Shown here: positions 4,426 to 63,844 of the stretch, piece after piece
How positions within the stretch are numbered: position 1 is the stretch's first letter
How the letters are laid out: each line of letters starts with the position of its first letter
Source: a virus
Lineage: Duplodnaviria > Heunggongvirae > Uroviricota > Caudoviricetes
Direction: 5' to 3' (one strand)
IMG/VR virus record: IMGVR_UViG_3300027301_000002
DNA: 64,000 nucleotides
The notes under the pieces: generated by a model
What the model was told of the DNA's origin: nothing
Databases searched by the model: none
Seen by the model: only the letters and a program-made list of their open reading frames with translations
Translations under genes and position numbers: made by a program

Positions 4426-6165
4426 TTATCTATCTTTGTATACAAAAACTGCATGACCACAATCCCAAATTCTGTCAAATCCATTATTCAACATGTTTTG
4501 ATACTCCGATAGATTCTCATCATATTCTTTTAAGACCTTGTGTAATCTATGTTTCATAAATCCACTGCGGTGTTTGAGTGTATTGTTGATGACATACCAA
4601 TAACCTGGTTTGCTGTCATGCTTATGTTTGAATCCTAATTTGTGGTATAGATCACCATTCGAATATCTCAAGTCGGCATAAGTGATGATGTTTTGTGGGT
4701 TGTGTGTATTAATGAAATATTTTAGAAGCCTCGAAGCACCACCAATGACAGTGTGGTTTAATTTATTACAAAACCGAATCATCTCCCAATCACTGTAATC
4801 ACCTTTGACAATTTTACGATGACCAAAAGTCATCATAGATACCAATTGACTGTCATGGTATAGCCCATAAGAAATTTGGCTATTATCGTTTCCTTGTATA
4901 TGGTTCTCGTCTAGGAATTTGACCTTCTCATGTCTATCAGTTATTTGGTGGATGGTGCACTTTCTGCCAAATATCCTTTTCGAAATACCCAATTTACTAT
5001 CTATAATAGATTTGACAATTTGTTGCTTTGTTTGCCATTCAGATTCCCATATCTGGATTAATTGAATGTTTTTAGCTTTGCATTCCATATATTTATTACG
5101 ATGGTAATTTTTGTCTTTTCCATTTGATTCATTGTGCCAATATATGCCATTGCATTCGATTGCTATGTTTTTTGATGGAATAAATATGTCTATTTCTTTT
5201 GGTGGTATAACGTCTCTTGAATTATTAATACACTCCAACCCAAGGGTTTTTATGTATTGATATACCTCTAATTCGAATGCACTTGATCGAGGATTGCATT
5301 GAGGGCATATAAGTGTGTTTTGCCACTGACCACTCGATATGGATCTGGTAAATTCGTGGCCACATGTCTGGTGCTTAATGTGATGTTTTCCTTCGTTTAT
5401 GCCGTGGTTGGTAATCAATTCGTAGCCATTGTCTAAAAAATGTTCGGTCACTAATTTAATGCGATTTTTCTTTTTGGACTCTGCTACAAGTTGCTGGGAG
5501 CATCTTTTTGCATGGCATGATGAATAGCCAAATTTGCTATTTCGGAAGTTAAGGTGATTACCACATTTATGGCATTTTGGTGGTGTGTGTATGTTATGTA
5601 TAAAGTTATAAAATACTTGTGACCATTTTATATCATCTCCATACTTAATATATCCGATTTTTAGCAGAGTAGATAGATGCGTACTATGTGTTCTTAGCAA
5701 CGCTGTATTAAATGTTGAATTAGGTTGCTGAAGCCTTTCGAGGCAGAACGCCATTAAAGCATCATGTGATACTAATTCATGATTTGAATTTAAAATTTCA
5801 ACAAATCCATTTTTTTTATTCTTCTCTGTGTTAATCTTTCCGTCTTTGCATGATTTCCATTTTGTAGATGCTCTCTTGCAAATGTTGTTTGAGCAAGTTT
5901 TTGAATATGGTTTGTTTTTATACCCCTTCCATTTTAATGGCTTATTGCAAGCTTTACATCTTTGCTGAGATGTGGTCTTATTGACGATACAGTAAATTCG
6001 TTCAGAACAGCATGCTTGCTCGTCTAGAAATTTGGTCTTTTCTTTTATACTTTGATACAATTCACTAGAATCAAACCCGGGTTGTCTTAGCACAGCACTA
6101 TTAATGTTACCTGTTTTGGTGTATAATTGTGCTTTTATCTGTTCTATGAGTAATTCATCGTCCAT
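4426..6165 (-). CDS. Free-standing homing endonuclease-like protein (Hef / Vsr-DUF559-like nuclease with zinc-binding repeats)
   Basis: Two N-terminal CxxC...Y...C...C repeats, CPQC, nuclease motif EIDIFIPSKNIAIECNGIYWH...IQIWESEW, and a C-terminal FCNKLNHTVIGGASRLL...YADLRYSNG...WDCG block typical of Hef-like phage proteins. Confidence 0.75.
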   Translation of the reverse strand: MDDELLIEQIKAQLYTKTGNINSAVLRQPGFDSSELYQSIKEKTKFLDEQACCSERIYCIVNKTTSQQRCKACNKPLKWKGYKNKPYSKTCSNNICKRASTKWKSCKDGKINTEKNKKNGFVEILNSNHELVSHDALMAFCLERLQQPNSTFNTALLRTHSTHLSTLLKIGYIKYGDDIKWSQVFYNFIHNIHTPPKCHKCGNHLNFRNSKFGYSSCHAKRCSQQLVAESKKKNRIKLVTEHFLDNGYELITNHGINEGKHHIKHQTCGHEFTRSISSGQWQNTLICPQCNPRSSAFELEVYQYIKTLGLECINNSRDVIPPKEIDIFIPSKNIAIECNGIYWHNESNGKDKNYHRNKYMECKAKNIQLIQIWESEWQTKQQIVKSIIDSKLGISKRIFGRKCTIHQITDRHEKVKFLDENHIQGNDNSQISYGLYHDSQLVSMMTFGHRKIVKGDYSDWEMIRFCNKLNHTVIGGASRLLKYFINTHNPQNIITYADLRYSNGDLYHKLGFKHKHDSKPGYWYVINNTLKHRSGFMKHRLHKVLKEYDENLSEYQNMLNNGFDRIWDCGHAVFVYKDR

Positions 6166-13873: not shown

Positions 13874-14327
13874 AATATAGTGGTGATGTTGTTAATTTGT
13901 TAATATATAGCGGGATGTCTTTAGAATCAATATATAATCCTTGATAGCGCCAAAATATTTTATCTCCTTTTGCCAAAATCTTTTCAGCAATTCGATTTTT
14001 GATTATTTCGACTGCATTATTGTGGGGTCTCCAATCGTTGAGCAATTCATCTGGATAGTCGTCGAGGATAAACTTCTTGTCTGTTACCTTATATCCCCTG
14101 CGAATAATTTCATCTTTTATTTCGACATGTCGCTTGTGCAGGTATAAAATCTTATCAGTCCAAAATAAAATATGTCCTTTCCCAAGCGTAAATTCGTTGG
14201 GTACTTTTGATTTCATTTTGAATTTATTTTTTCTCAACATGCCATCCACAATAAGCAATTCAGATTGCTCTGCGATTAAATGCTGATCTAATAGCATATT
14301 AGGCTCAATGCCAGCATTGCATCTCAT
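13866..14327 (-). CDS. denV: Pyrimidine-dimer DNA glycosylase / endonuclease V family
   Basis: LLDQHLIAEQSEL and FTLGKGHILFWTDKILYLHKR...RRGY align with T4 DenV (LADQHLMAEYREL; FILGAGHVTFFYDKL). Confidence 0.85.
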   Translation of the reverse strand: MRCNAGIEPNMLLDQHLIAEQSELLIVDGMLRKNKFKMKSKVPNEFTLGKGHILFWTDKILYLHKRHVEIKDEIIRRGYKVTDKKFILDDYPDELLNDWRPHNNAVEIIKNRIAEKILAKGDKIFWRYQGLYIDSKDIPLYINKLTTSPLYYV

Positions 14328-14944
14328 GGAATAAAATAAAGAGGCTTGGTTTGATAACTGTGGACTTCGATGAATTCATTATCTTTAATTTCGTATACTA
14401 CTCTAGGGTTGATGCTCTGACTACATCTATTTGTAGCTGTTGAAGAAAAATCCCCAGTCTCTGGATCCATGAATAGAGTATTATCCGAACGTGTAACAAA
14501 AAGCTGATTGGTTAAAATATTATACATCCAACAAGCCCACGTTCCTTTAAATTTTTCAAAACATTGAAAGCCATGGATATGCAATTGAAACGGGATTACA
14601 CTACTATCTATTTCATATGTATGATTGTCTCGAATGTGTTCGGGAATAAGCTCTTTGTGGTTTGTTAGGATGCCGTTGTGAGCAACCAACCAATTCCGAT
14701 ATTCAAAAGGATGGCATCTTATTGGTGTAAATGTATGACCAATCCCAGTAGGCGCTCGCAGATGACCAAGATAAAGAGATGCATCATTCGCATTGAATCT
14801 GATATCCATGTCATCACTTTTGTATATAGTGTGTTTATTATTTCTCCGAAATACTCCGCCAAAACTACTAAACCCTCTAACGGTATTTGCGTCGTATAAT
14901 TCATTGAATCTTTCCAATTTAGTTGATTTAAAAATTCCGCACAT
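14324..14944 (-). CDS. Class II (Ntn) glutamine amidotransferase
   Basis: N-terminal MCG nucleophile, GHLRAPT, HPF, AHNG, DS motifs. Confidence 0.85.
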   Translation of the reverse strand: MCGIFKSTKLERFNELYDANTVRGFSSFGGVFRRNNKHTIYKSDDMDIRFNANDASLYLGHLRAPTGIGHTFTPIRCHPFEYRNWLVAHNGILTNHKELIPEHIRDNHTYEIDSSVIPFQLHIHGFQCFEKFKGTWACWMYNILTNQLFVTRSDNTLFMDPETGDFSSTATNRCSQSINPRVVYEIKDNEFIEVHSYQTKPLYFIP

Positions 14945-14948
14945 ATGA

Positions 14949-15629
14949 TTAACTATACTTTGCTAAAAACCTCTTTTCACTATTTTTCCATCTTTCATTA
15001 TCTGTAGAACTCAGTCCGCCTGATGCGTGTGTGACATGGATAGGAACTGTTGACATTTTCAACCCTGCTTTATTTGCGCGAAGACAAAAATCAATATCAT
15101 AATGATGGAAATCGAATTGAGGATCAAAAAGCACACCATTATCCATAAGTGCCTTTCTATTAGCAGCTAAAAACAGCCCATCCATAACGATGCATCTAGA
15201 TGGGGAAGGTCCAAAAGATGTTGCGAAAGATTGGTTTGTATTTGGAATATAATGATTCACAAATCCCATCCATTGTTCTCTAGGTGACATTAAATGCCAA
15301 AGTGCCGGTGATTTGATTTCTGTATTAGAACTACCAGCAAGACCCAAGATGTCGTAATTTTCAAATCCTTCTTTCAATTTTTCAAACCAAAAAATATCTT
15401 CAATTACGACATCATCATGAACACACACTACATAATCATGCTCACATTCCAAAATTGCATGGTTGTAAATTTCGGATAGGCCTTGCTTATTGTTATAAGC
15501 AACATATGTCTGGTCCGAGACTTTAGCCTTTCTCAAGAACTTTCCAAGATGGGAATTACACCAAAAATCGTAATGGTGCATTTTTGTCGCTGTGATGAAA
15601 TAAATATCAGTACTTTTCATAATTCTCAT
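14949..15629 (-). CDS. GT-A fold glycosyltransferase (Glyco_tranf_2_5-like)
   Basis: GLSEIYN, VHDDV, ILGLAG, MDGLFLA, FHHYDIDFCL. Confidence 0.75.
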   Translation of the reverse strand: MRIMKSTDIYFITATKMHHYDFWCNSHLGKFLRKAKVSDQTYVAYNNKQGLSEIYNHAILECEHDYVVCVHDDVVIEDIFWFEKLKEGFENYDILGLAGSSNTEIKSPALWHLMSPREQWMGFVNHYIPNTNQSFATSFGPSPSRCIVMDGLFLAANRKALMDNGVLFDPQFDFHHYDIDFCLRANKAGLKMSTVPIHVTHASGGLSSTDNERWKNSEKRFLAKYS

Positions 15630-16363
15630 TGAATGCCGTATTTCTCATAGTCAATGGAAATTGCATATTCCATGGAATCTTTTAACCCGGCATTAATAAA
15701 TCCTTGTAATCTATTGGCGCATGCGACACATTCGCCGCATGAAAGTGTTTTAACACCCGGAATATAAACCGGGTCGTAGCATGTCCATGTCAGTTCGAAT
15801 GGTACGTTTAATTCTGCACCTCTTCTAATGATTTCTTCTTTATTCATCGTCATTAGAGGTGCTTTAATTTCAATGCTATTTTTACGATTAAGGCAAATAA
15901 CTCTATTAATTGCTTCCAAAAACTCTGCAGAAGCGTCCCAATAACCCGACAGAGTATCTGCTTGTTGTGCTCCATAATATACTTCATTTGATTCTGTGCT
16001 TTCAGCGAAACCTACCGCAGTGCTCAGCATAATCATATTACGATTAGGCACGTAACTTAGTGGCTGCGGATCTCCAAGAACATCTTTTGCTTTTGGTATG
16101 TCATATTCTCCGTTGAGCAATGCAGATGTTTGCAAGTAGTCAAAAACATGCTTCAACGAAATTTCATGTAAAATTACTTTGTTGTTCGAAAGCGCCGCCA
16201 AATGATCTACTACTGCAGCTGCTCTGGCACATTCAATGGAATGCTTTTGGCCATAGAAGAAATTCAAACAATATAAAACTTCACCTTCTTCTAATTTTGA
16301 AGCGACGTCATACAACAGCACTGTGGAATCTAAGCCGCCGCTAAAGATAATAACCTTATTCAT
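15626..16363 (-). CDS. queC: 7-cyano-7-deazaguanine (preQ0) synthase
   Basis: FSGGLDST, YGQKH..E, YVPNRNMI, APLMTMNK, TWTCY...CGECVAC zinc site. Start reassigned to ATG 16363. Confidence 0.95.
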   Translation of the reverse strand: MNKVIIFSGGLDSTVLLYDVASKLEEGEVLYCLNFFYGQKHSIECARAAAVVDHLAALSNNKVILHEISLKHVFDYLQTSALLNGEYDIPKAKDVLGDPQPLSYVPNRNMIMLSTAVGFAESTESNEVYYGAQQADTLSGYWDASAEFLEAINRVICLNRKNSIEIKAPLMTMNKEEIIRRGAELNVPFELTWTCYDPVYIPGVKTLSCGECVACANRLQGFINAGLKDSMEYAISIDYEKYGIQ

Positions 16364-16368
16364 AAATA

Positions 16369-16397
16369 AATATAACATACGGAAATGATGGTTGCAA
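16369..16397 (-). promoter_or_regulatory. Sigma70-like promoter of the queC operon
   Basis: Minus strand TTGCAA-17 nt-TATATT with TGn extension. Confidence 0.6.
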
Positions 16398-16415
16398 CTA
16401 ATAAATAAATATTGT

Positions 16416-17261
16416 ATGGCAAACCTCAAACAAATTTTCCTAAACACATTACTCGAACAGGAAGCTCCTGAATCTGAAACCAATTATGATGCACAACAAG
16501 ATGAGGCACCTCTTCGTGATCGTCTTGCAAAAAATGATGTGCCTGAAGATGCATTAGACGTAGAGCCTGGACCCCCTAACACTGGATACAAAGCCGAAGT
16601 TGCCGCAGCAGAGGATTGGATTCAAAATATTGATGAGTTTGTCAAATACCTAAATGATACTGCGACTGGATCTATTAACCGACAAGTCAACGTATTAGAT
16701 AGAGATAATAGTGTGTTTAAGGGAATTGCATCACGTATTTCGGATAAGGTTGCGCGTGTTTCAAGCGACTTAGCTGAACTTAAAGAAATTATTGCTGGGT
16801 TTGTTATCGCATCGGATCGCAAGGCTAAGAACATTAGAATGGCTGATTCTTTTGAAAGTGAATTAACTCCGTCTGAAATCGTGATTGAGAGATTATCACG
16901 TTGCGGGTTTGAGTATAAATCGTCATCGCCAGCATCGCATAGAATGGTGCTTGAAACAGCAGACGGTGAGTTATTTGCTGAAATCAATCAAGAAGGTCTC
17001 GTCAATGGCGAGAGCATTGATGAGTACATGGAACGTCTTAATGCAGAATACAACATCACTGAACTAATCGATGATGCCGATGAAACCATTATCGGTGAAG
17101 ATGTTATCATGGATGAAAAAATCGTCAAGCAAATTAAAGAAATCGATGTAAAATTGGCTACAAAGTGGGACTACGATTTATACATCAAACGCCGCGAGCT
17201 TTTGTCTAAGATGGAAACTAACTACATTGATGTCGCCAAAAGCTTAGTCGAGGGTGATTAA
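16416..17261 (+). CDS. Acidic late protein, candidate head-internal protein
   Basis: TAAATA box 4 nt before the ATG; N-terminus LKQIFLNTLLE; strongly acidic. Confidence 0.55.
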   Translation: MANLKQIFLNTLLEQEAPESETNYDAQQDEAPLRDRLAKNDVPEDALDVEPGPPNTGYKAEVAAAEDWIQNIDEFVKYLNDTATGSINRQVNVLDRDNSVFKGIASRISDKVARVSSDLAELKEIIAGFVIASDRKAKNIRMADSFESELTPSEIVIERLSRCGFEYKSSSPASHRMVLETADGELFAEINQEGLVNGESIDEYMERLNAEYNITELIDDADETIIGEDVIMDEKIVKQIKEIDVKLATKWDYDLYIKRRELLSKMETNYIDVAKSLVEGD

Positions 17262-50121: not shown

Positions 50122-51378
50122 ATGCATTTTAATACCCAGCCACATATTCATGGTAGTGTTTTCGGCAAGCCCGCATTTGGAAATTATAATCCAGAATTCT
50201 TCCGCCATAGGATGGATCAACAAACAGAGCAGTTGAGAAATTCTCAACAGGTTGTCAATACTACTGAACCTCCAGGTGCGGGCCTCAAGAGAGCTATTCA
50301 TTTCTATGCTGATTATGGTGGGTGTGGATTATGGAGAATGTCATGGCCAGAATTGCTAATGAATGGGTATAATAAAACAGTAGTCAATGGGTTGACACAA
50401 ATGAATACGGATCCCAATTTTTACAGACCAGTAAATGCTATCAAATTACAAAGACAAGCAACTAACGAACAACTCATGTTTGTTAAATTCTTGAAATCAA
50501 TGCAAAAAGAGTTTGGATTTAAATTGATCTACGAAGTGGATGATGTTGTATTCTCCGAAGATATCCCCCTATACAACACAAGCAGACCTGCATTTACAGA
50601 TCCCCAAATTAGAAGTAATATTATAGAAATTATTAATCTATGTGATGAAATGTGTGTAGTCTCTCCATACATGAGAGATTACTATAAGAAAAAATCAGGC
50701 AAGCAAGAAATCAACGTCATTCCAAACTATGCCCCTAAATTCTGGCTTCATGATTTTTATGACCCGATTAAGATTGACAAGAATTACGTCAAAAATAAAA
50801 AGAAACCAATAATCGGGTATATGGGATCTGGCACTCATTTTGACCCGGCTAATACTGCGAATCAACAAGATGACTTTGCACATGTTATTGAAGCAATTAT
50901 CAAAACGCGGAATAAGTTTCAGTGGGTATTTATGGGTGGCATTCCGATGAGATTGCTGCCCTTTGTAAATCGAAAAGAAATTATTCACGTGCCGTGGGTA
51001 AACATTTACGAAATGCCAAGAACATTTGGATCTCTTAATATCAATGCCGTAATCGCACCACTCGCACGTAATGAATTCAATCGTGCAAAATCGGATATCA
51101 AAATGCTTGAGGCTGGTGCATTAGGTATTCCCGGAGTATATCAAGACATGGAACCATACCAAGAGGCGCCGTTCAAATTCAAAACAGGCGATGAAATGAT
51201 TTCTAAATTAGAAACACTGCTTAAAGATAGAAATGAATACCTTAAGCAATCAGTGAAGGCGCGCAAATTTGCAGAGAAGAGATGGCTAGATGACCATCTT
51301 GATGAACATGTTGAGATGCTGTTCAAGATGCCAACCGAAAATAGACCAGCCATCGCTAATAATGGATTCAATGTATAA
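50122..51378 (+). CDS. GT-B fold (GT4-like) glycosyltransferase
   Basis: GCGLWRMSWP, YEVDD, VIPNY, IGYMGS.TH, IAPL..NEFNRAKSDIKMLEAG..GIP. Confidence 0.75.
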   Translation: MHFNTQPHIHGSVFGKPAFGNYNPEFFRHRMDQQTEQLRNSQQVVNTTEPPGAGLKRAIHFYADYGGCGLWRMSWPELLMNGYNKTVVNGLTQMNTDPNFYRPVNAIKLQRQATNEQLMFVKFLKSMQKEFGFKLIYEVDDVVFSEDIPLYNTSRPAFTDPQIRSNIIEIINLCDEMCVVSPYMRDYYKKKSGKQEINVIPNYAPKFWLHDFYDPIKIDKNYVKNKKKPIIGYMGSGTHFDPANTANQQDDFAHVIEAIIKTRNKFQWVFMGGIPMRLLPFVNRKEIIHVPWVNIYEMPRTFGSLNINAVIAPLARNEFNRAKSDIKMLEAGALGIPGVYQDMEPYQEAPFKFKTGDEMISKLETLLKDRNEYLKQSVKARKFAEKRWLDDHLDEHVEMLFKMPTENRPAIANNGFNV

Positions 51379-51417: not shown

Positions 51418-51843
51418 ATGTGGAGAAATGTTTACTATGACAATAGCCGCAAGAAGATTTTCTTGTGGAGTTGGGATAAAAATGGCAAACGCAAAATGTA
51501 TGATTTTGAGTATGAGCCATTCTTGTATGTAGAGACAAACAGTGCTCAGTATGATGCAAAAAGTCTTTTCAATACCAACCTTAAAAAGATTGTATTCAAA
51601 AACGAATCAGCAAGAAATCAATATGTAAAGGATGCAGGCATTCGTCGTGTGTTCTATAACTTGAGAGCAGAGCAACAATTTTTACTTGATCTTTATCGCG
51701 ATAAAGAATTTGATTGGTCTCATTTGCCATTCAAAACATTTTATTTGGATATTGAAGTTTATACTGCAAAGTATAAAAATGATAAAAAAGTCAAAATACG
51801 CAAAAAGATAGACACACAAAAAACGCGGGGAAGCAATATCTAA
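51418..51843 (+). CDS. gp43: Family B DNA polymerase, N-terminal fragment (N-domain to Exo I)
   Basis: YEPFLYV, QQFLLDLY and Exo I YLDIEVY, followed by a basic tail and TAA. Confidence 0.85.
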   Translation: MWRNVYYDNSRKKIFLWSWDKNGKRKMYDFEYEPFLYVETNSAQYDAKSLFNTNLKKIVFKNESARNQYVKDAGIRRVFYNLRAEQQFLLDLYRDKEFDWSHLPFKTFYLDIEVYTAKYKNDKKVKIRKKIDTQKTRGSNI

Positions 51844-51988
51844 AGCAAAAAAAGGAGTCAAAACAAACCAAAAACAATTAACATCGTCAAGACTTAAAAA
51901 AATGTCAGACGAAGAATTTGAAATCTATTTATCGAAAATTAATCCATGCACAAGAAAACGCATGATACACTACCGAAACAATGAATGA
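51812..51988 (+). pseudogene. Start-less remnant resembling the C-terminal DNA-binding (NUMOD3-like) tail of a homing endonuclease
   Basis: 58 open codons in a third frame: THKKRGEAISKAKKGVK...LKKMSDEEFEIYLSK...RNNE*, whose TGA overlaps the ATG region of the polymerase C-fragment. Confidence 0.5.
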
Positions 51989-54338
51989 AGTAATTGAAAC
52001 AACATTGGGTGAAATCCGTGGAAATCCGCAACTACTTGAGCAATATGAAATCTGGGACGAAGAGACAAAGGAATGGACTTCATATCATAATTCATGCTAT
52101 ACTCATCAGTCAGAATTTCCAGAAGCAGACGAAGCAAAACATCCAATCAACGTAATCACAATTTATGATAACATATCTGAAAGCTTTTATAGTTGGGGTT
52201 TACATCCGTACGAAAAATCTGGCATCAACGCCGCGTTCGCATCGCAAGGAATTAAAGAGTTGGATGTTCAGAGAATCCATTATACCTATTGTAGAACCGA
52301 AACGGAGTTGCTCCAAAAATTTCTAGAGTTTTGGTCTAAAGATTATCCAGATGCAGTAACCGGATGGAATATTGAAGGGTTTGATATTCCATATATCATT
52401 AATCGGATTTCTTATGTTTTGGGAGAGGATGAAGCAAAGATGCTCTCTCCTGTGCGCAAGCTTTATGTTCGACAAGGAATTGCTACAAAGTTTGGCAGAG
52501 AAATTAATAAGTGGTATATTCGAGGAATGACTTGTCTTGATTATATGGACTTGTACAAGACCTTTAGTAGAGGAGAACAAGATTCATATTCTCTTAACAA
52601 CATTGCAGCAGCAGAGCTTGAAATTGGTAAATTGGCCCACAATGCGTCGGATTTGGCAGCGCTTGCTGAAAGCGATTGGAATTCATTTGTTCATTACAAT
52701 ATTCATGACGTAAACCTTGTCAGATTGTTGGACGAAAAATTGAATTATGTTACTATTGCGAGATTCTTAGCTTATAAAGGATTTACCAAAATCGAAGACT
52801 CATTGGGTAAAATTATGATAGTGACTGGTGCGATGTGCAAGGAAGCTAATCGCATGAATAAAATCATTCCGACATTCAATGCAGTTGCAACACAAGAGGA
52901 TTATGTTGGTGGATATGTCCGAGAACCGCAGCGTGGGTTGAATGAAGCAGTTGTATCATTTGACGCCAACTCCCTATATCCAAATACGATCATCACCCTG
53001 AATCTTTCACCGGAAACAAAAATCGGTAAAATCATTTACAGGGATGACACCGAATGCAAAGTAAGATTTATCAACAAAAAAGAACAAGTATTTACCATAG
53101 ACCAGCTTGAGGAATTTTGTACAAAAGGAAGGCTTGCATTATCACAAGCAGGTGTTTTGTATCGTCAAGATGTCAAAGGCATTTGTCCGACTTTTATTGA
53201 TTCACTTTATCAAGAACGGGTTGTTATCCAAAACCAAATTGAACAGCTTGAATCACAGCAAGTAACACCAGAAATTAAACATAAGATTAAGCATTTGGAT
53301 CAGATGCAGTACACAATCAAGATTTTCTTGAATTCTGCGTATGGTACTTATGCGAACAAATACAGTCCGTTCTATGATATTGATATGGCTGCAAGTATTA
53401 CGGAAACAGGGCAGGCGGTTATTAAACAAGCAGCATCGATTGTTAATAAATTCTTTGTCGAGGAAAATGGTTTGCCGGATAAGGATTATATCGTATATGG
53501 AGACACAGATTCGGTTTATTTAACTATTAAAGATTACCTCACAAAACATAATATTCCGATCTTAAAGGAAAACGGAGACGTTACAGAAGAATGCGTTGCA
53601 GCAACGGATACACTACAGTCATTCATCAATGATAAAATTAATCATTGGGCGCGCAATACATTACATTCAGTAGATCCGCGATACTTCTTCAAGAGAGAAT
53701 CAATTTGTGATGTTGGTCTTTTCTTGGAAAAGAAACGGTATATTCTTAGTGTGAGGTATGATGGCAAAAGAAACAAACACAAATACAAATATGTTGGTGT
53801 TGAAGTTCAGCGCAGTACATATTCAAATGCTGTTAAGAAGTTGATGAAGGATATCATTACGACCGCGTTTAAATCAAAAGATCGTGCGATTACTGACGCA
53901 AAGTATAGAGAGTGTTATGAGAGTTTCAAGACCTTACCAATTGATGATATTGCATTGCGTTCCTCTATTAAAGATTATGAGAAATATGCTTCACAGTCGA
54001 ACGGATTCAATATTGCATTGCATACTCCTATTCATGTCAAATCGGCGATTTATTTCAATACATTAATTAATACATTGAATTTGAAATCAAAATACATGCC
54101 AATCATTTCGGGCACAAAGATTCGGTATGTATACACAGCCCAAAACAAATACGGGCTCAAATGTATTGGATTTAATGACACAATCCCACCAGAGTTCGAC
54201 ATTAAAATCGACACAGAAAAAATGTTTGAGAAGCTAGTTGCACCTTGCATTGAAAGAGTGTATAGTTGTATCGGCTGGCAAATTCCAGACATGAGCAGAC
54301 AATATCAATGTGATTTTTTAGATCTTTTTGCCTTATGA
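51981..54338 (+). CDS. gp43: Family B DNA polymerase, C-terminal fragment (rest of exonuclease plus polymerase)
   Basis: EFP...HPINVIT, Exo II GWNIEGFDIPY, Exo III YNIHDV, Pol A FDANSLYP, Pol B KIFLNSAYG, Pol C YGDTDS. Confidence 0.95.
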   Translation: MNEVIETTLGEIRGNPQLLEQYEIWDEETKEWTSYHNSCYTHQSEFPEADEAKHPINVITIYDNISESFYSWGLHPYEKSGINAAFASQGIKELDVQRIHYTYCRTETELLQKFLEFWSKDYPDAVTGWNIEGFDIPYIINRISYVLGEDEAKMLSPVRKLYVRQGIATKFGREINKWYIRGMTCLDYMDLYKTFSRGEQDSYSLNNIAAAELEIGKLAHNASDLAALAESDWNSFVHYNIHDVNLVRLLDEKLNYVTIARFLAYKGFTKIEDSLGKIMIVTGAMCKEANRMNKIIPTFNAVATQEDYVGGYVREPQRGLNEAVVSFDANSLYPNTIITLNLSPETKIGKIIYRDDTECKVRFINKKEQVFTIDQLEEFCTKGRLALSQAGVLYRQDVKGICPTFIDSLYQERVVIQNQIEQLESQQVTPEIKHKIKHLDQMQYTIKIFLNSAYGTYANKYSPFYDIDMAASITETGQAVIKQAASIVNKFFVEENGLPDKDYIVYGDTDSVYLTIKDYLTKHNIPILKENGDVTEECVAATDTLQSFINDKINHWARNTLHSVDPRYFFKRESICDVGLFLEKKRYILSVRYDGKRNKHKYKYVGVEVQRSTYSNAVKKLMKDIITTAFKSKDRAITDAKYRECYESFKTLPIDDIALRSSIKDYEKYASQSNGFNIALHTPIHVKSAIYFNTLINTLNLKSKYMPIISGTKIRYVYTAQNKYGLKCIGFNDTIPPEFDIKIDTEKMFEKLVAPCIERVYSCIGWQIPDMSRQYQCDFLDLFAL

Positions 54339-55129
54339 AAATAGCACACGAAGCACCAATAGCAATATTAAAACAAGTACAGAAAGTAACGCACTATGAA
54401 TATGTTCTAGTTCATCTTTTAGATGAATCACAAGAATATAAAGACCATTTCTACAGCAAAAGCAAGATTCCAGTCAATCAGCTAATACTTGATAACAGTA
54501 TATTTGAACTAGGGCATGCTTTTGATTGGGATAAATATGCAGTACATGTGCAGGGATTGAATCCTACTAGGTACATCTTGCCAGATGTTCTGGGAGATAA
54601 AGAAGACAGTATTCATAATGCGAGGGTTTGGATGTCGACATATCATGACAAATTCAACAGGTCTCCACGTAATTTGTTACCAATGGCAGTTGTGCAAGGC
54701 CAATCAATGGATGAGCTGACCGAGTGTTATGTAGCATATTACAAAAATGGCATTAGAAATATCGCCATCGGATTCAATCATGATTTCTTTGTTAAAGATT
54801 CAGAGACTAGAGACTGGGATCAAGCAAATGGCAGAATTCAATTTGTGAAACATCTCAAAGAAACAGGAGTATGGAAATCGGATTGCTATCATCATTTGCT
54901 CGGATGTTCTTTGCCAATTGAATTGGGATATCGAGGATATAATGATATTAATTCTGTAGACACATCAAGCCCAATTCTACACGGATTGCTTGGTATTAAA
55001 TATGACGCATTGGGAATTTATCAGAAGAAGAAAATCAAAATGAATGATTTGATTCATAGCGAGGTTTCTGATGAACAACTGCAAATTATACTTGATAACA
55101 TAAAAACCTTTAGATATATTACTGAATGA
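54335..55129 (+). CDS. TGT/DpdA-like guanine transglycosylase (TIM barrel)
   Basis: ILDNSIFE, PDVLGD, AVVQG, IAIGF, HHLLG and SVDTSSP correspond to the two catalytic-Asp regions and the H/YLxG strand of TGT-fold enzymes; no C-terminal zinc site. Confidence 0.65.
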   Translation: MKIAHEAPIAILKQVQKVTHYEYVLVHLLDESQEYKDHFYSKSKIPVNQLILDNSIFELGHAFDWDKYAVHVQGLNPTRYILPDVLGDKEDSIHNARVWMSTYHDKFNRSPRNLLPMAVVQGQSMDELTECYVAYYKNGIRNIAIGFNHDFFVKDSETRDWDQANGRIQFVKHLKETGVWKSDCYHHLLGCSLPIELGYRGYNDINSVDTSSPILHGLLGIKYDALGIYQKKKIKMNDLIHSEVSDEQLQIILDNIKTFRYITE

Positions 55130-55689
55130 AAATTTGTATTAGCGGACCCCAATGTGCGGGTAAAAGTACTCTAATGCGCAAACTTAAAGAGTGCGGTAAT
55201 TTTGACCAGTATCATTTTATTGATGAGCCTGTAAGAAGGCTGGTGAAAGAAAAGAATATTAAAATCAATCAAGATTCGAATTATGAATCTCAGATGACTA
55301 TTCTTGAGGAGCATCATCGTAATATCTATAGACATCCGAAGTTCATCACCGACAGGGGTGCATTAGATGCGTTTACGTACGCTACGCATGATTATCTCAT
55401 TGGAAAATATTCATTCAAGGAATGGAAAACATTCTATGAAATTTATGCGGAGACTATGCATCAATATGATCATATTTTCGTATTACCACCTCTTGAAATG
55501 AAAGATGACGGATTTCGGTCATTGGATGTTCAATGGCAGGAGCAGATCTACAATCTAATGTCAGATATTGGCTATCGGTGGCTAGATATTACAAGCACTC
55601 TTTCTACGCCTATTTGGCAAGTTCCGCAAGGTAACCCCGATAGTTATGTTGAATATATTTTAGCTAAACTAGATCAGGAGCTCTGGTAA
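55126..55689 (+). CDS. P-loop nucleotide kinase (AAA_28 / dNMP kinase-like)
   Basis: ISGPQCAGKSTL, ITDRGALDAFTY, DDGFRS. Confidence 0.75.
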   Translation: MKICISGPQCAGKSTLMRKLKECGNFDQYHFIDEPVRRLVKEKNIKINQDSNYESQMTILEEHHRNIYRHPKFITDRGALDAFTYATHDYLIGKYSFKEWKTFYEIYAETMHQYDHIFVLPPLEMKDDGFRSLDVQWQEQIYNLMSDIGYRWLDITSTLSTPIWQVPQGNPDSYVEYILAKLDQELW

Positions 55690-55691
55690 CA

Positions 55692-56162
55692 ATGAAGACT
55701 TATCTATCTTGGGATTACGTAGAGGAAAGTACTGAATCATTAGCACAAACGCTCGTTACAGATTATTCAGATAAGCTAAATGATTTTGTAATTTTGGCAC
55801 CATATTATGGAGGGTGGCCTGTAGCCACAATGACAGTCAATGCGATACGAAATTTGACATCCACCGAATTCAAACCACCAGCAATTAATGAAACAGATCT
55901 AATTCGTCTTAATCTTCTTTCATTGTTTAATTCTCAAAGGTACTTGGTTATATTTGATGATGTCCTGGATACCGGAAAAGTCATTAATAATATTATCTGG
56001 AGAATTGATCATGAGTGCAGATCGTTTATCAATACAGATAAAATCCATGAACGAATCATTGTCGCCACGATTGGTCGTAAAAGAAAGTGCGAATGGCCAT
56101 GTCGGCATATTTTCAACACAGAATGGAAGTTAGATGAATGGATTGTATTTCCATGGGAATAA
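55692..56162 (+). CDS. Type I purine phosphoribosyltransferase (Gpt/HGPRT-like)
   Basis: LSWDYV, PRPP loop IFDDVLDTG, C-terminal WIVFPWE. Confidence 0.75.
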   Translation: MKTYLSWDYVEESTESLAQTLVTDYSDKLNDFVILAPYYGGWPVATMTVNAIRNLTSTEFKPPAINETDLIRLNLLSLFNSQRYLVIFDDVLDTGKVINNIIWRIDHECRSFINTDKIHERIIVATIGRKRKCEWPCRHIFNTEWKLDEWIVFPWE

Positions 56163-56170
56163 ATTATTAT

Positions 56171-56644
56171 ATGAATACATTTTTAGAATACATCAACACG
56201 GCGGAACAAGAATCAATTTTAAGAGAGTCGAAACAAACCAATAAATTTGACATCAAATGGCAGATTGTTCGAACAGACGCTAGAGACATCAAAGACCCGA
56301 GCAAAAAACTGTCATTCGTTCTGAATTTCCTTGAAAAGAATCCATCAAAACAAAACTATGATAGAGTAGCCAATTGGGTTAAAATGACGGGTGTTTCCTA
56401 TAAAGGAAATGATCGTGAAAAATTTGAAAAAGCCCACGATAAACTAAAACAAGACAAAGAGGAATACAAAGAATCTAATGACGAAGATAATGACCTCAGC
56501 AAAATCAATACATCAGAATTACAAAAGGTATACAAAGACCTCAGCAAGAGAAAATATGGATTTCAATTTAAATCAGTACCAAAAGCACACACTGAATTTA
56601 TCAATGCAGTTGAAAAAGAGTTAAAATCAAGAAATAATAGTTGA
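56171..56644 (+). CDS. Hypothetical charged protein
   Basis: ATG 56171; N-terminus MNTFLEYI...ILRE. Confidence 0.5.
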   Translation: MNTFLEYINTAEQESILRESKQTNKFDIKWQIVRTDARDIKDPSKKLSFVLNFLEKNPSKQNYDRVANWVKMTGVSYKGNDREKFEKAHDKLKQDKEEYKESNDEDNDLSKINTSELQKVYKDLSKRKYGFQFKSVPKAHTEFINAVEKELKSRNNS

Positions 56645-56684: not shown

Positions 56685-57068
56685 ATGAGTAACGAAACAC
56701 CAAACATCCGCACATTCGTCAAGGAAAACCTTATCGCATTTATCGATCCAGCAGGACGCACTGGATTCGGTGAATTGGTTCCACATCTCGATACAGATAC
56801 TACAGTAGCAATCAAGAATCCAGTAGTAGTTCATGTTGTTCCCCAAGGACAGAACATGGCACTACAACTCTTGCCTGCATTCTTCCGCGAATTCGGCGCA
56901 AGCCTCGAAGAACCAATTGTCTTCAATTATCCAAAGAGTTCAATTGCACTTACCAATGGCGCCACCTTTGACTTCAAGTTGTACGGCCAATATGAAGCAA
57001 TGTTTGCACCGCCGCCTTTGGTGCAGCCGATTTCAGACCCAAAGGTTGTCAAGCTTTTTGACGAATAA
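56685..57068 (+). CDS. Hypothetical beta-rich (Sm/SH3-like) protein
   Basis: AFIDPAGRTGFGEL...IKNPVVV pattern; followed by a strong terminator. Confidence 0.5.
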   Translation: MSNETPNIRTFVKENLIAFIDPAGRTGFGELVPHLDTDTTVAIKNPVVVHVVPQGQNMALQLLPAFFREFGASLEEPIVFNYPKSSIALTNGATFDFKLYGQYEAMFAPPPLVQPISDPKVVKLFDE

Positions 57069-57085
57069 TCAAACCAAACTAAACC

Positions 57086-57113
57086 AAAAGCCCCTCTTCG
57101 GAGGGGCTTTTTT
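57086..57113 (+). terminator. Intrinsic terminator with C-UUCG-G tetraloop
   Basis: AAAA-GCCCCTC-TTCG-GAGGGGC-TTTTTT. Confidence 0.9.
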
Positions 57114-57163
57114 ATTGCACAATACATGTGATTTAACACACACCGCCTCTTATATTGATATAC

Positions 57164-58264
57164 ATGAAAAAGAATCCGATTTTAGAAAAGGCTTTCAAGA
57201 GTTTAAAGAAGATTAATCCGGACGCTGAGTTCCTTAATAACAGTACACTATCGACTATTACAGGCTTCATTGATACAGGAAGCTATGCACTGAATGCTAT
57301 CATCAGTGGCAAGATCAAAGATGGTGGGGTACCAAAGGGTCGTATTACAGGATTTTCTGGTCCATCCGGATGTGGCAAGACTCTTATTATCAATAAGATT
57401 TTTGGGAATGCACAAAAACAAGGAATGATTCCAGTCATCTGGGATACAGAGGGTGCGGTTGATCGCAGAGCAGCTGAGGGTGTTGGGTGTGATGTCAACA
57501 ATTATATTTGGAACTCGGCAGATACGATCGAGCAATGTCGTAATGATATGGTTAAGTTTCTGGATGAAATTATCGCAGATCCAGAAATGAAAGGTAAATT
57601 TATTTTTGCAATTGATTCTCTTGGCAACCTTATCAATGCAAAAGAGTTGCAAGACATTTCCAAAGACAAAGAATCTGCGGATATGGGTCTTCGTGCAAGG
57701 GCGATGAAAAGCCTTATGCGAACATTGAGCAATAAAGCATCGAAAGCACAGGTTCCAATTTTATTCACAAACCATATCTATGATGACCCATCTGCGATGT
57801 TTCCATCATTGATTAAGAATCAAGGTGGTGGTAAGGGACCAATTTATCTTTCAACTGTTTTAGTTCAGATGTCAATGACACAAAATAAAGACGAGGACGA
57901 TGATGATAAAAAAATCGCCATTGCAAATAAAGTTAGCGGCATTACTATGTCTGCAATGACTGTTAAAAATCGTGTAGTTCCGCCATTCTTGAAGACTGAA
58001 CTAGAGCTTAACTTTAAAACAGGTCTCGATAAATTTTCGGGCCTTGAGGTGATGGCAATTGCATATGAAGTTGTTAAGCAAACTGGTGCAACATATCAGT
58101 TGCCAGATGGCACTAAGCTCGGATATTTTAAACAGTGGCGCAAGAATGAAGATCTTTGGGAGAATACCATTATTCCTAATCTTCAAAAGAAACTCGACAC
58201 TGAACTGATGTATTCAACCACCGACCTAGACACCAATGACGAAGAAGACAACGAAGAAGCTTGA
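57164..58264 (+). CDS. uvsX: RecA-like recombinase (UvsX)
   Basis: DTGSYALNAIISG, GPSGCGKT, DTEGA, IDSLGNL, TNHIY, GGGKG, KNR. Confidence 0.9.
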   Translation: MKKNPILEKAFKSLKKINPDAEFLNNSTLSTITGFIDTGSYALNAIISGKIKDGGVPKGRITGFSGPSGCGKTLIINKIFGNAQKQGMIPVIWDTEGAVDRRAAEGVGCDVNNYIWNSADTIEQCRNDMVKFLDEIIADPEMKGKFIFAIDSLGNLINAKELQDISKDKESADMGLRARAMKSLMRTLSNKASKAQVPILFTNHIYDDPSAMFPSLIKNQGGGKGPIYLSTVLVQMSMTQNKDEDDDDKKIAIANKVSGITMSAMTVKNRVVPPFLKTELELNFKTGLDKFSGLEVMAIAYEVVKQTGATYQLPDGTKLGYFKQWRKNEDLWENTIIPNLQKKLDTELMYSTTDLDTNDEEDNEEA

Positions 58265-61567: not shown

Positions 61568-62176
61568 ATGAAACAACAAAAATATAATTTCGACGATGCC
61601 AAAAAGGCATATGGTGGCTTCTTGACGGCACTTGGATTTGATTGGCAGAATAATCCGCATATGAAAGATACACCCTCTCGTGTCACAAAGGCATGGGTTG
61701 AAGATCTTGCTCGTGGTTGTTTTGAACCAGCACCAAAAATTACTGCATTTGATAATGACGGTAGTTACGACGGGATTGTTTGTCAGACCAATATTCCTGT
61801 AGTATCCATGTGTGCACATCACAACCTACCATTTTTTGGATATTGCCATGTTGCGTATATTCCACAAAAGGATGGCAAAGTCATCGGTCTTTCTAAGCTC
61901 AATCGAGTAGTTGATTACTTTGGTCGGCGCCCGCAAGTACAAGAAAATCTTACGATGGAGATTCACAACTTCTTAAACGATCTTTGTGAAAATAATCTTG
62001 GAGTCTCGGTGCTAGTCGAGGCAAATCACACGTGCTGCTCTATGAGAGGCATTAAACAGAATTCAACAATGCGTACGGCAAAAATGTCGGGCGCGTTTAT
62101 TGAAGCATCCAATAACAGCAGAAACGAATTTTATAAATTCGTAGAATTTGCACAAACAAGTAGAAGCCTAGTATGA
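61568..62176 (+). CDS. folE: GTP cyclohydrolase I
   Basis: TPSRV, SMCAHHNLPFFG, GLSKLNR, RRPQVQENLT, HTCCSMRG. Confidence 0.95.
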   Translation: MKQQKYNFDDAKKAYGGFLTALGFDWQNNPHMKDTPSRVTKAWVEDLARGCFEPAPKITAFDNDGSYDGIVCQTNIPVVSMCAHHNLPFFGYCHVAYIPQKDGKVIGLSKLNRVVDYFGRRPQVQENLTMEIHNFLNDLCENNLGVSVLVEANHTCCSMRGIKQNSTMRTAKMSGAFIEASNNSRNEFYKFVEFAQTSRSLV

Positions 62177-62754
62177 TTGAATTAAGCAGAGATGAAGCGA
62201 TCGCGACGGCAAAATTGGCATCATTTGTTTCCGGTGCTCTGAATAGTATTGGTGAAATGTCGACAGGATCTTCTCGCAATATCACAGATGGGAGAGACAT
62301 TGATGTGAATAATATTCTATCACAGTTCACTATTACAGCACCACCAAAACCACCAGGACCAGTGATCGAAGGTATTGCAGTCGATCGCGAAGATAAAGAG
62401 GTCGTTTTGCATCCTGTAGAACAATCAAATGTTATCGATGAACCAGTTAGAATCGAAAATCCTTTTGCTAAACAATCGACTATGATAACAAGCAACAAGC
62501 CAGTAATTCCACTCAATCCAAATGGCAAATCACCGATAGCATCTTTTCTCAAAAAAGAGGCAACAAGTACTGTGGAGGCAGCACCAATACCAACACAATC
62601 ATTACCAGGTACGCCAGGGCTGAATGAGGGTGATATTAGCAAAAATAGTGTTGCATCGTTAATCTATGAGAAATTAGTATCAATTGAACTTAAGTTAAAA
62701 ACAATACAAACGTCAATTAAGAAACTAAATGAAAATAAAAGTTCAAAAGGATAA
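62173..62754 (+). CDS. Hypothetical protein with proline-rich linker
   Basis: ATGA overlap with folE; tiled ORF. Confidence 0.5.
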   Translation: MIELSRDEAIATAKLASFVSGALNSIGEMSTGSSRNITDGRDIDVNNILSQFTITAPPKPPGPVIEGIAVDREDKEVVLHPVEQSNVIDEPVRIENPFAKQSTMITSNKPVIPLNPNGKSPIASFLKKEATSTVEAAPIPTQSLPGTPGLNEGDISKNSVASLIYEKLVSIELKLKTIQTSIKKLNENKSSKG

Positions 62755-63478
62755 TTTCAGTAGCTTTTTATTGCCAGTTTCACGCATTAGTGACGCCAAT
62801 ATTTCTTGTGCAATTCACATAGAATCGGATTATCTGTATGTTGTATCTCATGACGCAAGTGCGGTTTGCATTTACTATGCAAAGCATGTTCCGATAAAAA
62901 TAGAAGACGTTAGCGAACCGTTTGTTATATATGTATCGGATATTCGCAAGGTAATTAATGCAATTGATGTTATCGACGAAGACGAAATTATATTGAATAT
63001 TACGTCAAAATTCATCAGTTATGAATCACCAACCATCAAGTTCAAATGTTATCTTTTGGATCCCGCAGTAGCGGCTGCTGAAAAAATCAGTGCCAAGATG
63101 ATTGATTCATTTAAGTTCGATACGGAATTTGTTATGAACACAAATACGTTTTCAAAAATTAATAAAGGATGCACATTTACAGACAACAAAGGAAAGATCT
63201 ATTTCTATACCAACGCGGAGAATAAAAAGGTATATGTTGACTTGGATGATAAATCCGCAAACCATAGCGTCAATAACATTACGTTTATCGCCGCTGATGG
63301 GTATATTGGATCAGACCTGACACCAACATCACCATTATCAATTGATACATTTAAAATTATCAGTGCATTAAAACATGACGTGCAAACGAAAGTAAATATT
63401 ACCAAGGGAGCATATATGTTTTATTACAGAGATGGAAATACAGAAATCAAATACTTGCTTAGAGCACTTAAATCTTAA
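62729..63478 (+). CDS. Sliding clamp candidate (T4 gp45-like)
   Basis: 249 aa with alternating beta/alpha pattern and duplicated halves (K...F...L..+..I; DTEFVM....FSKI), consistent with a ring clamp. Confidence 0.6.
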   Translation: MKIKVQKDNFSSFLLPVSRISDANISCAIHIESDYLYVVSHDASAVCIYYAKHVPIKIEDVSEPFVIYVSDIRKVINAIDVIDEDEIILNITSKFISYESPTIKFKCYLLDPAVAAAEKISAKMIDSFKFDTEFVMNTNTFSKINKGCTFTDNKGKIYFYTNAENKKVYVDLDDKSANHSVNNITFIAADGYIGSDLTPTSPLSIDTFKIISALKHDVQTKVNITKGAYMFYYRDGNTEIKYLLRALKS

Positions 63479-63493
63479 CCAAACACCACATAT

Positions 63494-63844
63494 ATGGCAA
63501 ATAAAAACAAACCAACTAACGAAAGTTATTTCATCAAAAGACTCCGCGACAGCGGATACCTTGTTGACAGGCTTCCGATTCGATACGGCCAACATGATCC
63601 ACGCTCATGGTCAGTAGTTATCGATCCTGGTAATTCCTCTGTAATCGCGACTATGTATCGCAATCTAGACGGAGTGGACGAGAACTATCTTGAATTCTAC
63701 GATGGGGATCAATTTGTACCACAACGATTCAGACTGTCTACAGATTCAATGGAAGTAATTATGGAGTGGTTGTATAAATTCGGCATCAATAACAAAACTA
63801 CACTTTATAATGCAAGAGGGTCGAATACATCGACCGCAGAATGA
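63494..63844 (+). CDS. Hypothetical protein
   Basis: YFIKRLRDSGY...DPRSWSVVIDPG; tiled ORF. Confidence 0.5.
   Translation: MANKNKPTNESYFIKRLRDSGYLVDRLPIRYGQHDPRSWSVVIDPGNSSVIATMYRNLDGVDENYLEFYDGDQFVPQRFRLSTDSMEVIMEWLYKFGINNKTTLYNARGSNTSTAE

Follow-up and report, generated by a model that had tools for sequence, protein, structure and literature searches.

A stretch of 64,000 nucleotides from a Caudoviricetes virus (IMG/VR virus record IMGVR_UViG_3300027301_000002; hereafter the window) was analysed with a focus on three coupled genes lying directly behind the DNA polymerase gene, which encode a transglycosylase of the DpdA3 subfamily with the fold of the tRNA-guanine transglycosylases (TGT), a P-loop kinase and a phosphoribosyltransferase (PRTase). 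The window spans positions 64010–128009 of a complete record of 195,888 bp with terminal repeats, and the coordinates given below are those of the window unless the record is named. Alone among known phages, those with DpdA3 exchange all of their guanine for a 7-deazaguanine. Across viral genomes, the linkage between DpdA3 and the kinase was found to be far above chance, and chemistry at the level of the nucleotide pool is suggested by this near-obligate kinase and by a guanine-type PRTase that often accompanies it. The module may well serve to substitute a 7-deazaguanine for guanine throughout the phage DNA, most likely via the nucleotide pool before replication, a statement that we hold with about even confidence. 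The three genes were the following:

54335–55129, forward strand: minimal TGT-fold transglycosylase of the DpdA3 subfamily, 264 aa (phrog_19058, similarity to the proteins of phages immuto and CP220, AlphaFold2 (AF2) model)

55126–55689, forward strand: AAA_28 P-loop kinase, 187 aa (Pfam, family profile, AF2 model, co-occurrence)

55692–56162, forward strand: Gpt-type 6-oxopurine PRTase, 156 aa (family profile against the PDB, motifs)

The original prediction had placed three coupled genes right after polB, which was borne out by the coordinates of the open reading frames (ORFs). The polB stop (54338) and the DpdA3 start share a 4-nt ATGA overlap, as do the DpdA3 and kinase genes, and a 2-nt gap separates the kinase and PRTase genes. 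The identities it had given to the three products were correct as well: a protein with the TGT fold, a P-loop kinase for nucleosides or nucleotides, and a purine PRTase of type I. The motifs quoted for them were real and conserved in the alignments of homologues (26 DpdA3, 20 kinases and 17 PRTases). Furthermore, the idea that the trio works together with the que genes was strongly supported by the co-occurrence counts described below.

To begin with the genetic linkage, locus counts were based on the best 80 loci per query, there being roughly 555 DpdA3 loci in IMG/VR. In 63 of the 83 DpdA3 loci the kinase was no more than 10 kb away, in most cases 0–1.3 kb downstream and on the same strand, and the DpdN gene, where present, sits between the two. 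Starting from the kinase, DpdA3 was found in 68 of 74 new viral loci, the exceptions being three contig-end cuts and three small viral genomes. When whole records were considered, the kinase was present in each of the eight DpdA3-bearing viral records with a completeness of 90% or more, as well as in CP220, immuto and the present genome (11/11). The kinase was more tightly conserved with DpdA3 than the PRTase was, and neither of them appeared in the cluster of phage 9g, which has a DpdA1 and a replacement of 25%. Moreover, the DpdA3–kinase pairing was seen again and again, in four phage lineages and on dozens of viral contigs independent of each other, with differing polymerases and gene orders. 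A very remote explanation is that the trio consists of general nucleotide-metabolism genes that adjoin DpdA3 by accident: T4-like phages hold many such genes in the polB–uvsX region, and the kinase of the relatives is annotated as 'thymidylate kinase', but the recurrence of the pairing across divergent lineages, polymerases and gene orders is contrary to it, as are the co-occurrence counts. In addition, when 50,697 phage genomes were searched by tblastn, the kinase was found only in the Campylobacter CP220 group and in Flavobacterium phage immuto, both DpdA3-bearing groups, and in no phage genome outside them. In Campylobacter phage CC_R7 (PQ092953.1), the kinase had tblastn matches at two places and DpdA3 had none at E < 1e-3, perhaps because the DpdA3 gene of this phage is interrupted or has diverged.

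Judging by sequence similarity, the product of 54335–55129 is a new member of the known and already named DpdA3 subfamily (PMC10516641). It had a full-length match to phrog_19058 (E = 4.7e-41) and also matched the DpdA3 of Flavobacterium phage immuto (immuto26A_65; 38% identity, E = 5e-53, 264/264 aa) and gp056 of CP220 (36% identity, E = 3e-37), the latter two being reference members of the subfamily (PMC10516641). The original prediction had suggested placing this gene among the DpdA classes, and the placement came out as DpdA3. Pfam yielded no informative match for the protein, and its score with the NCBIfam DpdA model NF041059 was 12.7 bits, the cut-off being 200. The transglycosylase itself is thus not new, because the subfamily had already been named (PMC10516641), which had gone unrecognized in that prediction. 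Among the 50,697 phage genomes, homologues were found only in Flavobacterium phage immuto (annotated as DpdA) and the Campylobacter CP220 group, and the family was represented by 1581 homologues in metagenomes and by no fewer than 555 loci in IMG/VR. Fusions of DpdA3 to the kinase or to the PRTase were sought among the longer DpdA3 forms and none was found; the longer forms seen were fusions with QueF, a distant fusion with a nucleoside-phosphorylase-like domain and a single case of reading through into a tail resembling a homing endonuclease (NUMOD3). The natural DpdA3–QueF fusions found in metagenomes were 531 and 568 aa long (P0123 and P0124).

The AF2 model of DpdA3, made with 26 homologues (pLDDT 92), presented a bare (beta/alpha)8 barrel with one C-terminal helix, which Foldseek matched to the TGT superfamily (E = 2e-8, probability 1.0). 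The closest solved structure was the bacterial DNA preQ0 insertase DpdA (bDpdA), followed by the archaeosine TGT and the bacterial TGT. In the VIA comparison, bDpdA (7ui4) was aligned over 227 of 413 residues with a Z of 18.3 and a root-mean-square deviation of 2.9, and TGT and ArcTGT reached a Z of ~17.5. This kinship was visible by structure only, since Pfam TGT (PF01702) was not listed even at E-values up to 1 and the DpdA3 family profile found no TGT among the PDB sequences; similarly, the alignment to the DpdA1 of phage 9g by HHalign had a probability of 0.6%. Residues D53 (LDNS), D84, Q121, HLLG187–190 and D209 (VDTSSP) were invariant in the 26 homologues, and the motifs around D53, D84, Q121 and D209 resemble those of TGT, in which two aspartates are catalytic (D102 and D280 in Z. 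mobilis) and an Asp and a Gln bind the base, a putative correspondence drawn by motif. The CxCxxC zinc motif appeared in 0 of 84 members, and no invariant cysteine cluster was present in the 26 homologues. Overall, the protein is ~150 residues shorter than bDpdA and has no Zn subdomain. Net charge was also tried as a test of DNA binding and rejected, as a low pI is found both in DpdA3 (median 5.2) and in the DpdA1 of 9g (5.6), an enzyme that acts on DNA.

As regards the second gene (55126–55689), its modelled fold is closest to those of the deoxynucleoside kinases (dNK), the ribosylnicotinamide kinase (RNK) domain of NadR and the thymidylate kinases (TMPK), and its product is therefore a small-molecule kinase of predicted activity. 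It matched Pfam AAA_28 (E = 5.7e-15; 56.3 bits against a gathering cut-off of 27) and phrog_2107, labelled 'thymidylate kinase', while Pfam Thymidylate_kin gave no match at E-values up to 1. The family profile found NadR RNK (2.5e-6), dNK (6e-5) and TMPK (3.5e-4) in the PDB. The AF2 model (pLDDT 90) had the deoxyadenosine kinase of M. mycoides as its best Foldseek match (E = 1e-6, TM 0.67–0.72), followed by deoxycytidine kinase, NadR and TMPK. Against guanylate kinase, only residues 3–38, that is, the P-loop, were aligned (E = 0.03). The motifs GPQCAGKS, D76-R77...D81 and DDGxR were invariant in the 20 kinases (G7, G12, K13 and D128-G129-x-R131), and the conserved putative substrate-site residues comprised E34, R37, Q56, D76-R77 and the LID-like DDGxR motif. 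Such residues, typical of small-molecule kinases, and the compact dNK/RNK/TMPK fold speak against an explanation in which the 'kinase' assists DpdA3 on DNA as its ATPase. According to bacterial Dpd work, ATP hydrolysis by DpdB is reportedly needed for preQ0 insertion by bDpdA, and a DpdB-like role would agree with the strict pairing and with the translational coupling of the two genes; no DNA-binding or ParB-like features were found in the kinase, and this role was considered quite improbable.

A second AAA_28 kinase paralogue of 234 aa (E = 1.6e-13) was found just past the window end, at record positions 128215–128919 (L167:3216–3920). It lies 2 kb downstream of FolE, with four ORFs without a family match in between (window positions 62173–63844), and it is followed by a 414-aa ORF with no assigned function. 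The modification module may thus have a further branch in this paralogue. Two kinase paralogues were also present in CP220, where the second copy is at 5419–5931, and in several other DpdA3 genomes. The P-loop half of CP220 gp055 was considered as a further paralogue and rejected, since its Pfam families are HD and AAA_33, the latter being a different kinase family.

For the third gene (55692–56162), a profile of the 17-member family matched the PDB entries 1vdm (1e-30), Sulfolobus GpT-1/2 (2e-25) and the E. coli xanthine-guanine PRTase XGPRT (~3e-15). The phosphoribosyl pyrophosphate (PRPP) motif DDVLDTG and the C-terminal WIVFPWE were conserved in the 17 PRTases, the latter being common to 1vdm. 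The single sequence reached only 12.7 bits against Pfam Pribosyltran (E = 0.079), below the gathering cut-off of 26.3, and the pyrophosphate (PPi) loop reads YYGG in this PRTase and its nearest relative compared to RGG in the family, so that its activity may differ from that of the RGG-bearing members. A tblastn search of the PRTase against the phage genomes gave no match, the relatives being detected by profiles only. The PRTase was present in 6 of the 8 complete DpdA3 records and in 14 of 19 records overall, plus CP220 and immuto, which means about 75% of DpdA3 genomes, usually adjoining FolE or QueE and typically directly at FolE; in CP220 it adjoins a radical-SAM gene. Moreover, in seven of the eight PRTase-anchored loci the PRTase was next to FolE and QueE with no DpdA3 nearby. 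These Gpt-like PRTase–FolE–QueE blocks (L159–L166; for example, L164:9998–13102, on a 340-kb contig) stand next to an epimerase and a weakly glycosyltransferase-like ORF, and seven of the eight loci had no DpdA3, kinase or QueC within 10 kb. The block with its epimerase looks like a different deazaguanine-related module.

The distribution of the PRTase bears on another explanation, in which this enzyme joins the deazaguanine to PRPP, the kinase makes the diphosphate, the ribonucleotide reductase of the phage reduces it and the polymerase builds it into DNA. DpdA3 would be left to mop up residual guanine or to act on another target. The conservation of the PRTase family in deazaguanine clusters, some of them without DpdA3 within 10 kb, and its presence in all three reference lineages tested (3/3) would suit this order of events. 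However, two of the eight near-complete DpdA3 genomes had no PRTase, although none was without the kinase, the PPi-loop arginine is replaced in the present copy (YYGG, not RGG), and the universal DpdA3 would be left without a necessary role; this order was therefore regarded as improbable. The lower conservation of the PRTase, its Gpt-like nature and its place beside FolE fit the recycling of guanine into GTP better than the making of a deazaguanine nucleotide.

The genes for the deazaguanine base were searched in the same genome. The original prediction had noticed queC and folE elsewhere in the window, and Pfam matches upheld both of them. QueD and QueE are also encoded in the phage genome, while QueF was absent from it, as were DpdN and DpdL. 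The relevant features of the window were:

61568–62176, forward strand: FolE, GTP cyclohydrolase I, which opens the 7-deazaguanine pathway (Pfam GTP_cyclohydroI, E = 5.7e-48)

15626–16483, reverse strand: QueC homologue (PF06508, E = 6.4e-55 at record 79698–80363)

14324–14944, reverse strand: ORF matching a DpdA3-neighbour cluster (cluster hidden Markov model (HMM) at record 78333–78953, E = 1.3e-22)

The cluster matched by the last of these recurs beside DpdA3 in 30 viral loci. Pfam assigned no family to its representative, and from its N-terminal MCSIVG the ORF is read as a putative class II (Ntn) amidotransferase.

Taken together with fold and linkage, the analogy to known systems led us to infer, with a confidence of about one half, that DpdA3 swaps the base of a deoxynucleoside or nucleotide in free form, that the kinase phosphorylates the product and that the PRTase recycles the guanine. 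By established chemistry, FolE, QueD, QueE and QueC produce the free 7-deazaguanine base. The DpdA3 barrel would then replace the guanine of free deoxyguanosine or (d)GMP through the customary covalent Asp–ribosyl mechanism, and the dedicated kinase would phosphorylate the unusual product, which would be a poor substrate for host kinases, leaving host or phage enzymes to complete the triphosphate. The polymerase, whose gene is immediately upstream, would incorporate the deazaguanine nucleotide, and the Gpt-type PRTase would turn the released guanine into GMP, pulling the exchange forward and refilling the GTP for FolE. The candidate products are preQ0, ADG or G+, QueF being absent. On these terms, no TGT-fold enzyme before DpdA3 would have been known to use free nucleosides or nucleotides in place of a nucleic acid. 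Together with the kinase, and aided by the Gpt-type PRTase, it would be the first case of a hypermodified purine of the 7-deazaguanine class being made ahead of replication, which we consider to be an evenly balanced proposition.

Several lines of evidence converge on a nucleotide-level product. The near-obligate kinase of dNK/TMPK fold, its absence from partial-modification phages, the minimal DpdA3 and the nucleoside-phosphorylase-like fusion of a distant branch make it simplest to see the DpdA3 product as a free nucleoside or nucleotide. Complete base replacement is usually achieved via the nucleotide pool, as in the hydroxymethylcytosine (hmC) pathway of T4 and in the phages with 2-aminoadenine (dZ), and by analogy to both a complete replacement fits this route. 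In DpdA3 phages, 100% of the guanine is replaced; DpdA3 expressed in E. coli gave no DNA modification, and the ADG nucleoside was observed within the cytoplasm in CP220-infected cells (PMC10516641).

On the other hand, a number of observations weigh against the nucleotide-pool route. The published DpdA3 model is one of post-replicative insertion (PMC10516641). The kinase fold is compatible with a nucleoside kinase and a nucleoside monophosphate kinase alike. Some 20 DpdA3 loci had no kinase within 10 kb, although the four of them that were searched as whole records (4/4) were fragmentary contigs, and three small viral genomes (21–27 kb, 71–95% complete; L142, L154 and L158) carried a related kinase (37–39% identity) and neither DpdA3 nor que genes. 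To our knowledge, every characterized enzyme of the TGT superfamily acts on tRNA or DNA, and a mononucleotide or nucleoside substrate would be without precedent. Furthermore, no dGTP-clearing enzyme was found in the phage genome, whether with the families HD, MazG, PRA-PH and MazG-like or with HMMs made from the neighbouring genes of other loci, and genes for PRA-PH-type NTP pyrophosphatases or HD proteins were present in only 7 of 11 DpdA3 genomes; the missing recognizable dGTP-removing enzyme is, as far as the sequence can tell, the largest gap in the nucleotide-pool reading for the present phage. Finally, the phage is uncultured and known here from its sequence.

The main alternative, judged less likely, is post-replicative. 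In it, DpdA3 swaps guanine for the deazaguanine base in new duplex DNA, and the PRTase and kinase only recycle the large quantity of released base from guanine to GMP, GDP and GTP, which enters FolE. It corresponds to the published interpretation (PMC10516641), and it is favoured by bDpdA, a DNA preQ0 insertase, being the nearest solved structure, by the failure to find a dGTP-clearing enzyme in the phage genome, and by the Gpt-like PRTase being usually beside FolE/QueE and also in que clusters without a nearby DpdA3. However, the kinase is not guanylate-kinase-like beyond the P-loop, DpdA3 is without the Zn subdomain and other accessory elements, the DpdA1 phage 9g has neither gene, and heterologous DpdA3 left DNA unmodified (PMC10516641). 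In particular, the kinase follows DpdA3 more strictly than the PRTase does, which is the opposite of what pure guanine salvage predicts, since a guanylate kinase is generally present in bacteria already and a strictly co-inherited kinase for the second step would be hard to explain. The original prediction had offered two roles for the PRTase and kinase, the making of nucleotides for the polymerase or the recycling of released guanine. The data favour a predicted role of the kinase on the DpdA3 product, with the PRTase as an auxiliary guanine-recycling or feeding enzyme and not as the maker of the deazaguanine nucleotide. The text of PMC10516641 had zero occurrences of 'kinase' or 'phosphoribosyl', and nothing tying DpdA to a pre-replicative route was found in the literature searched, relative to which both the partnership with the kinase and PRTase and the pre-replicative reading are new.

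The surroundings of the trio presented the following features:

51418–54338, forward strand: family B DNA polymerase, T4-type, in two ORFs, with blastn matches to DNA polymerase genes of T4-like phages

56138–56644, forward strand: 168-aa ORF without a family match, overlapping the PRTase stop

56685–57068, forward strand: 127-aa ORF with no Pfam match, the final gene before the terminator-like hairpin

57086–57111, no strand assigned: bidirectional terminator-like hairpin with an 11-bp stem and T-runs on both sides, by consensus match only

57155–58264, forward strand: UvsX/RecA-type recombinase (phmmer against the PDB: phage UvsX 9gbg, E = 4e-43; T4 UvsX 3io5, E = 5e-20)

The polymerase ORFs (51418–51843 and 51981–54338) are in different frames with 137 nt between them. 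As 57155–58264 is a UvsX homologue, the trio is located between polB and uvsX, in agreement with the position originally proposed. The trio is probably cotranscribed with the polymerase, and the hairpin probably ends the polB–DpdA3–kinase–PRTase transcription unit, while a promoter scan of the locus gave sites no commoner than in shuffled sequence. For the ORF at 56138–56644, Pfam and PHROGs gave no match and Atlas nothing usable; its BLAST cluster comprised four loci only, and that of the PRTase likewise four. Upstream, a glycosyltransferase-like gene (50122–51378; phrog_7162, E = 2.7e-21) stands between a gp46-like SMC/Rad50 gene and the polymerase.

Two distant branches showed a similar association. 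Bacillus phage BSTP12 (MW354678.1; L174:5336–6684) and its relatives have a DpdA3-like gene (family HMM, E = 9e-22) with an overlapping P-loop ORF of weak dNK similarity directly upstream and DNA polymerase I downstream. This DpdA3-like gene lies inside a Gat-QueC/QueD/QueE/FolE cluster and is misannotated as 'NadR', its siblings being called 'polynucleotide kinase', 'integrase' or hypothetical. The second branch consists of bacterial proteins of ~605 aa (P0125–P0127; L173:7204–9818), in which a DpdA3-like barrel is fused to a nucleoside-phosphorylase-like domain (Atlas feature score 0.95, TM 0.76 to models of methylthioadenosine/S-adenosylhomocysteine nucleosidase, Pfam PNP_UDP_1 E = 0.003) and the second motif reads CDSN in place of DTSS. 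Their gene has an overlapping TMPK/AAA_28-like gene upstream, and its flanks include CYTH, NUDIX, an SKI-type kinase, PNP_UDP_1 and toxin-antitoxin genes.

Compared to known systems, DpdA3 shares the TGT-superfamily barrel and the substrate class with the bacterial DpdA/DpdB/DpdC system and with phage DpdA1 and DpdA2 (Z of 18.3 to bDpdA, which carries a Zn site), those enzymes being larger (317–413 aa) and modifying at most about 30% of guanines. In the hmC pathway of T4, the gp56 dCTPase, the gp42 dCMP hydroxymethylase and the gp1 dNMP kinase act on the nucleotide pool and beta-gt acts later. Under the nucleotide-pool reading, both phages would combine an enzyme modifying the base of a mononucleotide with a dedicated kinase to reach complete replacement, and the genome position between gene 43 and uvsX is the same; in contrast, the enzymes have no fold in common, a purine takes the place of the pyrimidine as the target and the present phage has no recognizable NTPase arm. 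ToyH and TubE are PRTases of toyocamycin and tubercidin biosynthesis that join a 7-deazapurine base to PRPP. The present PRTase is similar in standing beside FolE/QueD/QueE-type genes and could likewise put a 7-deazapurine on PRPP, although theirs are secondary-metabolite pathways of Streptomyces. The dZ phages (PurZ, the HD dATPase DatZ and MazZ; PMC8342488) also replace a purine completely via the pool with a small set of phage genes, but with other chemistry and enzymes, and with NTPase components that are obligatory there.

With respect to the DpdA3 phages immuto and CP220 (Cui/Hutinet et al., NAR 2023, PMC10516641), the present phage has in common DpdA3 (38% and 36% identity, respectively) and the kinase and PRTase families, and the likeness to the subfamily extends to FolE, QueD, QueE and QueC. 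It differs from both in joining the three genes in one translationally coupled block after a T4-type polB, and from the published DpdA3 phages in having no QueF, DpdN, DpdL or MazG/HD-type enzyme; moreover, the published description names DpdA3 alone and assumes that it acts on DNA (PMC10516641). The compact three-gene block, with no DpdN or QueF in between, is a convenient minimal set for expression. If the nucleotide-pool reading is true, it would offer an enzymatic route to 7-substituted 7-deaza-dGTPs, the annotations 'thymidylate kinase' and 'hypothetical' would be corrected in hundreds of environmental phage genomes, and the TGT superfamily would gain a new class of substrate.

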